A DNA stretch of 64,000 nucleotides from Candidatus Aenigmatarchaeota archaeon. Its GTDB lineage: Archaea > Aenigmatarchaeota > Aenigmatarchaeia > CG10238-14 > SCSR01. The stretch's first letter is position 1. Each line of letters starts with the position of its first letter. The DNA is taken from positions 10,196-74,195 of the forward strand of contig JAVZGQ010000003.1 of assembly GCA_038998585.1 (NCBI GenBank), read 5' to 3'. Positions 62,081 through 62,822 of this stretch are shown here, one piece after another. Position numbers and translations under genes: made by a program. Under the pieces are notes generated by a model. It was given only the letters and a program-made list of their open reading frames with translations. It was not told where the DNA came from and searched no databases.

Positions 62081-62822
62081 TTAAAATTTTATCTTTTTGA
62101 TTTCTTCTTCGGAAAGTCTCTTGAACTTTTTGTCTTCAACTCTTATAATAGCTATATCGGCTTCGCCATCTTTTTCTGTTTTTGAGATTATATCTAGAGC
62201 AATTTTCAAGGCCTCTGTTTCACTTAAGTTAGGCTTCCATCTTTGTCTCAAAATCTTGTTTGCCGGAGCAGAGCCCCTTCCAATTACATAAGCATACCAT
62301 TCATAAAGCATACCAGAAGGATCTACCTCTATCAGATGAATTCCAGTCGCATCTACACCGCCAACCAGAAATGAGACTCCATAGGGCCTTAAGCCCGCAT
62401 AAAGTGTTGAAATTTGCATCCTGTCGGCAATGCTTCTTGCAAGGCTCCAAATATCCATGGCCTCTTCGTAAGTTATTCTATGGATTTGGGCTCTAACTCT
62501 TGCTTGATTTGTAAGTACACGAGCGTCTGCAAGCAAGCCAGCAGCAACGGCAGCAGCGTGGTCATCTATTTGGAAAATCTTTTCTATAGATTCAGGAACC
62601 ATCAAAGGCGTTTTTGGTTTGGCTGTAGCAAAAAGAATTCCGTCCTTGAAAACTATTGCCATGCAAGTTGTTCCTCTCTTTACCGCTTCTCTCGCGTATT
62701 CGACTTGAAAGAGTCTTCCATCCGGGCTGATTCCGCACTAGTTAGCAGTAATACTAACTAATTAAACGGCAAGTTGACTGAGTAGAGATTAAGCTCTACT
62801 CATTTGTCCTGTCATAGCCCAT
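62081..62822 (-). CDS. psmA: Proteasome alpha subunit, interrupted after codon 7 by a 64-nt intervening sequence
   Basis: The first segment is ATG GGC TAT GAC AGG ACA AAT (MGYDRTN) at 62822-62802. After 64 nt, [33 protein letters not shown]... continues in another frame. The rest is a typical alpha subunit. Confidence 0.8.
62738..62801 (-). other. 64-nt intervening sequence in psmA with two hairpins at its borders
   Basis: Hairpin 1 is (T)GAGTAGAG-cttaat-CTCTACTC(A). Hairpin 2 is (AT)TAGTTAG-tattactg-CTAACTA(GT). The element contains in-frame stops for both flanking frames. Confidence 0.7.

Follow-up and report, generated by a model that had tools for sequence, protein, structure and literature searches.

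Three predicted bulge-helix-bulge mini-introns at the 5' end of an aenigmatarchaeal proteasome alpha-subunit gene and the association of such introns with free-standing LAGLIDADG genes in relatives

How is the proteasome alpha subunit made in an archaeon whose psmA gene opens in one reading frame, stops after a few codons and resumes in another? The question is raised by a 64,000-nucleotide (nt) stretch of Candidatus Aenigmatarchaeota DNA, hereafter the window, in which psmA lies on the minus strand; all coordinates below are positions in this window unless a related locus (L number) is named. An earlier note, made from the sequence alone, had described ATG GGC TAT GAC AGG ACA AAT at 62822-62802, followed by GAG TAG (through 62796), and a downstream open frame (62737-62663) that comes directly after TAG (62740-62738) and has no ATG, GTG or TTG ahead of the ATG at 62662. 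Each of these readings was confirmed on the minus strand. The note was likewise right that psmA is interrupted, that 64 nt in total have to be removed between the YDR and SPDGR motifs, that excising 62801-62738 joins the two frames, and that this segment forms two hairpins: its folding energy is -20 kcal/mol as against -10.0 +/- 2.4 for shuffled sequences (z = -4.1; 0 of 200 shuffles equally good). The interrupted sequence is no assembly artefact, as the note had allowed it might be, because the window matches a separately made Logan assembly (L161, run SRR27170999) at 100% identity over 1,486 nt, the interrupted region included; L161 may come from the same sample as the window contig. We find that psmA is very probably a four-exon gene with three mini-introns of 32, 31 and 33 nt, each of the bulge-helix-bulge (BHB) type and free of any open reading frame (ORF), which yields a canonical alpha subunit after splicing.

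At the protein level the best matches are proteasome alpha subunits of Candidatus Aenigmatarchaeota. Almost all have the consensus N-terminus, and a minority show odd or truncated N-termini, a hint of interruptions at the corresponding point. Across 160 fetched loci, the M of MGYDR and the S of SPDGR are 30 nt apart in the uninterrupted orthologues, which the earlier note had recommended looking for and which were found, as against 94 nt in the window and 60, 61, 62, 63, 90 or 95 nt in interrupted relatives. The extra DNA comes as two separate modules, one inserted after ACA A (e.g. L001 and L026: +31 nt) and the other after GTN T (e.g. L011 and L034: +33 nt). The window holds both, and 31 + 33 gives the 64 nt.

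The archaeal tRNA-splicing endonuclease recognizes the BHB motif, in which a helix of 4 base pairs (bp) lies between two 3-nt bulges on opposite strands. BHB scoring was run over all position pairs (a, b), taking into account an outer helix (h), the 4-bp central helix (H), 3-nt bulges cut after their second base and an inner helix (h'). A consensus-restoring search, with the BHB rule and the family consensus peptide as its sole inputs, returned only one solution in the window, with introns after nt 19 and nt 28 of the coding sequence (CDS, counted from the MGYDR ATG), and equivalent solutions in 20 other loci at CDS positions 19, 20, 26, 28 and 56. A separate BHB search upstream of MGYDR likewise gave a single solution (62856-62825), here called intron 0. 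All three introns fall within the first 52 nt of the psmA coding sequence (Table 1).

Table 1. Predicted features of the psmA locus, intron-bearing tRNA genes of the window and free-standing LAGLIDADG genes of related loci
Feature	Location	Strand	Description
Shine-Dalgarno-like GGTGAT	62884..62889	-	Read from the sequence; 5 nt upstream of ATG 62878
psmA exon 1, 22 nt	62857..62878	-	ATG CCT GAA ATC CTT CCT GAA T; MPEILPE + first base of Tyr codon
psmA intron 0, 32 nt	62825..62856	-	Relaxed BHB; sole BHB candidate yielding ...PEY joined to MGYDR
psmA exon 2, 21 nt	62804..62824	-	AT ATG GGC TAT GAC AGG ACA A; (Y)MGYDRT + first base of Ile codon
psmA intron 1, 31 nt	62773..62803	-	Relaxed BHB; from BHB scoring and the consensus-restoring search
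psmA exon 3, 9-nt micro-exon	62764..62772	-	UUGCCGUUU; supplies (I)AV(F)
psmA intron 2, 33 nt	62731..62763	-	Canonical hBHBh'; top-scoring BHB of the region
psmA exon 4, 650 nt including stop	62081..62730	-	UC AGC CCG GAU...; (F)... to KKIKF and stop; Pfam Proteasome + NCBIfam alpha subunit
tRNA-Arg(UCU)	48221-48307	+	12-nt intron 48229-48240 between nt 8 and 9
tRNA-Arg(CCU)	25127-25236	-	Introns 25228-25214 (15 nt) and 25175-25156 (20 nt)
Free-standing LAGLIDADG genes	L163:438-1385, L081:423-1397, L038:1899-2864, L082:272-1267, L011:1757-2749 and 10 other loci		Between pop5 and psmA

In all three introns two opposed 3-nt bulges flank the central helix at the correct spacing, intron 2 holding the motif in full and introns 0 and 1 in relaxed form, and flanking helices of at least 2 bp are found apart from the outer helix of intron 0, with h' measuring 11, 9 and 6+3 bp and h measuring 3, 2 and 0 bp in introns 2, 1 and 0, respectively. 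H of intron 2 pairs CCGU (62769-62766) with GCGG (62736-62733) at four of four positions, including one G.U, its bulges are UU/A and AA/U (the slash marks the predicted cut), and h' (62762-62752 with 62747-62737) is closed by a UUAC loop; it is the sole match in the entire window with H 4/4, h' of at least 11 bp and h of at least 3 bp. Intron 1 pairs GGAC (62809-62806) with GUCA (62778-62775) through 3 bp and a G.A mismatch, with bulges AA/A and AC/U, h' between 62802-62794 and 62787-62779 around a 6-nt loop, and an outer helix of CA with UG. Intron 0 pairs CUGA with GCAG at three of four positions (an A.G mismatch), has bulges AU/U and AA/A, and belongs to the HBh' type. The two hairpins of the earlier note are the h' helices of introns 1 and 2, one each. 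No single BHB spans the 64 nt, in line with its own test for a strict motif, and two separate ones are present; of its mRNA-intron explanation, the intron stands and the single 64-nt non-BHB element gives way to a 31 + 33 nt BHB pair.

Cleavage by the splicing endonuclease EndA would fall after the second bulge nucleotide on each side of introns 0, 1 and 2, and ligation, for which other archaea use RtcB, would connect four exons of 22, 21, 9 and 650 nt, which together make a 702-nt ORF for a 233-amino acid (aa) protein. The predicted junctions are CCTGAAT joined to ATATGGGC, GGACAA joined to TTGCCGTTT, and TTGCCGTTT joined to TCAGCCCGG, with CTTCCTGAATATATGGGCTATGAC and GACAGGACAATTGCCGTTTTCAGCCCGGATGG as the spliced-junction k-mers of the model. 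The N-terminus so obtained is exactly the family consensus, reading TIAVF between YDR and SPDGR, and the 15-residue junction peptide is identical in ~90% of the homologues listed. Splice points fixed by RNA geometry alone thus give the consensus, which a shift by one nucleotide would not, and this supports the BHB introns. The junction peptide put forward in the earlier note is the wrong product: its fusion reads TNCGI at the same place, in which CGI is intron read as protein (in intron 2, GCGGAA makes up the 3' strand of H together with the bulge), and it scores 33.1 bits against Pfam Proteasome_A_N over positions 9-23, as against 50.4 bits over all 23 positions for the product spliced in silico at the bulges. 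The NCBIfam archaeal proteasome alpha subunit model gives 254 and 268 bits, respectively. Joining exon 2 directly to exon 4 (GACAGGACAATCAGCCCGG) is also in frame and deletes AVF, so that skipping of the micro-exon is conceivable as a possibility.

The real start of psmA is ATG 62878 rather than ATG 62822; by taking MGYDR as the protein start the earlier note overlooked not only a third intron but also the MPEILPE(Y) exon ahead of it. An N-terminal extension of the form M-P-E-[IM]-[LM]-P-E-Y stands directly before MGYDR in 39 of the 55 related psmA loci that were scored for introns, and a GGTGAT or GGTGA-N4-8-start layout precedes the MPEILPEY start in relatives as well. Unspliced RNA would be read as MPEILPELKGE and stop inside intron 0.

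The structures are kept by compensatory substitutions. For intron 1, 87% of cells across 10 lineages are paired, as against 27-43% with slid partners, and compensatory changes occur in 7 of 9 h' pairs and also in the H pair 8:42 (GC/AU/UA); for intron 2, the values across 6 lineages are 89% as against 27-47% when slid, with 7 of 11 h' pairs compensatory. None of 500 shuffles reaches the observed covariation score, and unguided RNAalifold recovers H, a 3-nt bulge and h' in both alignments. A generic BHB scan of the whole, AT-rich window is non-specific (127 matches as against 70-96 in shuffles), with only intron 2 standing out; a scan for BHBs bridging two long ORFs, which is blind to introns beside very short exons, yielded no convincing further mRNA intron.

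Such introns recur widely in the same gene. We found 41 BHB introns in 25 of the 55 related loci, one to three per locus, distributed over eight sites within ~80 nt of psmA. Their modal length is 31 nt (21 of the 41) in a range of 20-37 nt, and 40 of them contain a stop in the frame of the upstream exon. Introns at sites -3/-2/0 are present in 14 of the 55 loci and also in L162, L163, L165 and L166; the one in L016 sits at the very site of the window's intron 0, and H is fully paired (4/4) in orthologous introns of L026, L021, L082, L162 and L016. L162, from a different sequencing project and with a PsmA 72% identical to that of the window, shows the same layout of three introns and a 9-nt micro-exon, with H 4/4 throughout. 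The 9-nt micro-exon lies at the same place in L162 and L041, and L021 has one of 7 nt between sites 19 and 26. A three-intron psmA is also found in L165 (GCA_016181005.1; L165:3488-4372), where the public annotation leaves psmA uncalled.

Among the competing explanations, one that we consider unlikely would have only introns 1 and 2 spliced and translation begin at ATG 62822 (MGYDR...), the MPEILPE segment and its hairpin serving as a 5' leader. It draws on intron 0 being the weakest BHB (three of four H pairs and the outer helix absent) and on several database proteins annotated with an MGYDR start; however, many such proteins come from loci that themselves bear intron 0, e.g. L081 and L002, and in 39 contiguous loci the codons of the PEILPEY extension vary synonymously while its amino acids are conserved. 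Moreover, the Shine-Dalgarno-like GGTGAT precedes ATG 62878 and none stands ahead of ATG 62822, the homologous intron of L016 pairs 4/4 in H, and 13 other loci have a BHB intron at most 3 nt away. That hairpin insertions disrupt psmA, leaving a pseudogene or an N-terminally truncated subunit begun at ATG 62662 (or at the ATC of the NCBI annotation), strikes us as very improbable. Gene callers do produce a 193-aa protein (P0003) and a 216-aa one (P0001, i.e. MEM5766332.1, with an ATC start at 62731), and the NCBI annotation has here been misled by the introns. Against such a disruption, the supposedly non-coding pieces encode the exact consensus once the BHB-defined segments are removed, the exons including the 9-nt micro-exon are conserved over 25 interrupted lineages, and compensatory changes preserve the helices of the introns. 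The miniature hairpin insertion element suggested in the earlier note, whether as a miniature inverted-repeat transposable element or another insertion element, was rejected: no second copy of the hairpins exists in the window, and their cores are essentially confined to the psmA site in 795 kb of related loci, a stray 10-mer match in L009 being a chance one inside the Rpp30 coding sequence.

Least probable of all, and in our view scarcely worth entertaining, is a single 64-nt non-BHB intron or a bypassing of 64 nt resembling that of T4 gene 60. A stop does follow directly on the last sense codon, beside a hairpin, but bypassing fails for want of a matching take-off and landing pair, since neither a GAG nor an AAU landing codon enters the SPDGR frame. 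The product of the 64-nt excision is off consensus at four of five residues where the two-intron model matches, and each half is found by itself in relatives, the 31 nt in L001 and L026 and the 33 nt in L011. A group I or group II intron was also discarded, since an Rfam scan of the window at gathering threshold gave two tRNA matches only and 31-33 nt is far too small.

The three-intron gene has points counting against it too. Introns 0 and 1 form only three of the four standard central-helix pairs each, intron 0 is devoid of an outer helix, and the H helix of intron 1 is missing from the minimum free energy fold of the single sequence, which reproduces the H-bulge-h' of intron 2. Both intron 1 and intron 2 need U62771 and G62770 for their outer helices, of which only one can form at a time; a fold with all three BHBs and every outer helix formed is thereby impossible, which implies ordered splicing or the cutting of one site in the HBh' form. 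Since introns 0 and 1 each carry one purine-purine mismatch in H, an enzyme tolerant of relaxed motifs is needed. Neither endA nor rtcB was found among the 20 suitably sized window ORFs scanned against Pfam, though both may lie elsewhere in the genome, and a lookup of the exact spliced protein in a collection of ~15 billion proteins found no match.

The tRNA genes of the window bear on what the organism is able to splice. ARAGORN detects no tRNA in the intact window, and Rfam recognizes two tRNA loci, which it matches only from model position 9; once predicted mini-introns are taken out, each yields a perfect tRNA-Arg cloverleaf, one UCU and the other CCU. The tRNA-Arg(UCU) intron, CCCC GU/A AGUAU GGGG AA/A, has no inner helix and is of the bulge-helix-loop type. 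In tRNA-Arg(CCU) a 15-nt intron between nt 8 and 9 (CCUC GU/A ... GAGG AA/A) is accompanied by a 20-nt intron in the variable region (GCCG UU/A ... CGGU AA/G); ARAGORN sees this tRNA after removal of the 15 nt (97 nt), and taking out both gives the standard length of 77 nt. As both tRNA-Arg genes need mini-intron removal, the organism must splice minimal BHB or bulge-helix-loop motifs at non-canonical positions, and the H and bulge geometry shared with the psmA introns supports a genome that relies on such splicing. From the motifs and their conservation we infer that the psmA transcript is spliced in vivo by EndA and RtcB. At tRNA-Arg(UCU), GCCCCCGUAA recurs 19 nt upstream (~48203-48220), and this duplicate could supply a different 5' exon, the intron then being 29 nt long.

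Where might these introns have come from? In L163 a LAGLIDADG_3 protein is called between pop5 (Rpp14) and psmA, and a tblastn search of all loci with this protein gave 15 further matches, each directly upstream of an intron-containing psmA and on the same strand. Upstream sequence of 1,200 nt or more is available for 48 loci; of these, 24 have psmA introns, 14 with and 10 without the LAGLIDADG gene, and 24 have none, all of them without it (Fisher p = 8e-6, shared ancestry not being controlled for). The encoded proteins are 302-354 aa long, intact in 14 of 15 loci and above the Pfam cutoff; both motifs (xGDG and LFDDE) are present in 12 of the 14 intact ones, and the strict second-motif pattern misses L093 and also L003, whose sequence reads XXXX at that point. 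Four clusters can be told apart among the proteins, and these correspond to intron sites: A with -3/-2/0, B with 19/20, C with 56 and D with 26/28. Hosts of one cluster average 67.4% PsmA identity and hosts of different clusters 68.6%, and some near-identical PsmA proteins belong to hosts with different clusters (L081 with A and L082 with C at 96% PsmA identity; L163 with A and L011 with D at 93%); hence the subfamilies appear to match the intron site rather than host relatedness. L082 and L083 have the same three introns and differ by a clean ~965-nt indel containing the LAGLIDADG gene. Loci fetched afterwards fit the scheme, L165 pairing a cluster-C gene with a site-56 intron and L166 a cluster-A gene with intron 0 only. 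The family has ~45 close members, all labelled Aenigmarchaeota where named, and a PDB sequence search gave no significant match. A tblastn search found no LAGLIDADG gene in the window, whose pop5-psmA spacer measures ~237 nt (62879-63115). A more distant homologue (L167:2501-3652; 383 aa with a winged helix-turn-helix) lies in another setting, upstream of a radical-SAM gene and of an unusually long (241-aa) ribosomal protein L11 call, which may be a further target gene.

To our knowledge, collaborative homing has so far been described only for a phage group I intron, that of psbA with the endonuclease F-CphI, reportedly by Zeng, Bonocora and Shub in 2009. As set out in PMC6083498, the free-standing F-CphI gene adjoins the intron-containing psbA of cyanophage S-PM2; the endonuclease cuts alleles lacking the intron, and carriers are shielded by the ORF-less intron in their target, which is co-converted. 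The aenigmatarchaeal loci resemble this in that an optional endonuclease gene of the relatives adjoins a conserved gene with ORF-less introns in a short stretch and that the presence of the two is strongly linked. They differ in having BHB rather than self-splicing group I introns, LAGLIDADG rather than Endo VII-like endonucleases, an archaeal chromosome rather than a phage as the setting, four endonuclease subfamilies matching four site clusters, and no endonuclease gene in the window itself.

Judged from the relatives only, the psmA introns look like the footprints of invasions by free-standing LAGLIDADG genes. We regard as evenly balanced the broader proposal that the psmA 5' end in Aenigmatarchaeota is a homing hot spot subject to collaborative homing by at least four LAGLIDADG subfamilies, with the window gene as a post-invasion relic. 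Under this proposal, at least four subfamilies would insert between pop5 and psmA, each cutting a different stretch of the intron-less psmA 5' coding sequence, and ORF-less BHB mini-introns lying exactly there would shield the allele that bears them and undergo co-conversion together with the endonuclease gene. The three introns of the window would be the footprints of subfamilies A, B and D, the endonuclease gene having been lost. Crenarchaeal rRNA genes have BHB introns that encode LAGLIDADG endonucleases, e.g. I-DmoI and I-PorI, and these likewise tie an archaeal BHB intron to a LAGLIDADG homing endonuclease; there, however, the ORF lies inside a long rRNA intron, whereas the psmA introns are 20-37 nt long and ORF-less and the endonuclease gene is outside and upstream.

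The nearest precedent for the splicing itself is the cbf5 pre-mRNA of Crenarchaeota (Watanabe 2002; Yoshinari 2006; Yokobori 2009, PMC2738675). The two cases have in common a BHB or relaxed-BHB intron in a coding sequence, its small size and want of an ORF, patchy gain and loss, and presumed splicing by EndA and a ligase. Whereas the cbf5 intron of Desulfurococcales and Sulfolobales is single and confined to one site, psmA has up to three introns per gene, eight sites in ~80 nt and a 9-nt micro-exon; the host gene and the phylum (DPANN Aenigmatarchaeota) are also different. In reviews up to 2023-2025 the BHB-spliced archaeal mRNAs are limited to cbf5 and the HVO_1309 5' untranslated region of Haloferax (PMC7714728, PMC10485636), the 2023 one adding that more are probably still to be found, and our full-text literature searches, which do not extend to subscription-only papers, brought up no BHB intron described for psmA or for any DPANN protein gene. 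Multiple BHB introns at non-canonical positions are documented for archaeal tRNA genes in Thermoproteales, ARMAN and other DPANN lineages (PMC5829648, PMC4033280). These share the motif, the small size range, the occurrence of several per gene and the relaxed forms with the psmA introns; unlike them, the psmA substrate is an mRNA coding region, where the reading frame constrains accuracy and stops end the unspliced reading.

The genomic setting offers some further observations. From 59970 to 63914 on the minus strand the genes follow the conserved superoperon order of archaea, Rpp30 - Rpp14/Pop5 - PsmA - SBDS - Rrp4 - Rrp41, judged from ORF translations and from Pfam labels in relatives; psmA, a gene that would depend on RNA splicing, sits among RNA-processing genes. 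Downstream of psmA, the start of SBDS (62041-62064, minus strand) presents a conserved N-terminus ..ITVGVDKAVIARL without ATG, GTG or TTG and with an in-frame TAA at 62064-62062. It may be either an AUC start (62052-62050) after the Shine-Dalgarno-like AAGGTG, the same position being ATC, ATT or ATA in 9 related loci, or the result of an 11-nt mini-intron of the bulge-helix-loop type (GUG UC/GAUAUCACUGU/A GGA) giving MSGVDKAVIAR. At this point L002 and other relatives read simply ATG GTT AGC GTT GAT AAG.

As far as our searches show, psmA would be the first protein-coding gene from which the tRNA machinery removes several introns. What is new is the number of introns, the micro-exon, the eight-site hot spot and the linkage to a free-standing homing endonuclease, and the mechanism would be that of ordinary BHB splicing. 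The introns mislead public psmA annotation, as in MEM5766332.1 and the uncalled gene of L165. The affected gene is essential and universally conserved, in a setting where BHB splicing of mRNA had been documented for essentially one coding sequence and one 5' untranslated region, and proteasome production would depend on tRNA-splicing capacity. With the LAGLIDADG link, how protein-spliced introns arise and spread in coding genes becomes open to direct test. If the homing proposal is true, collaborative homing would for the first time be seen in Archaea, with BHB introns and in an essential gene of a cell, and there would be a concrete account of how protein-spliced introns get into protein-coding genes and build up there.

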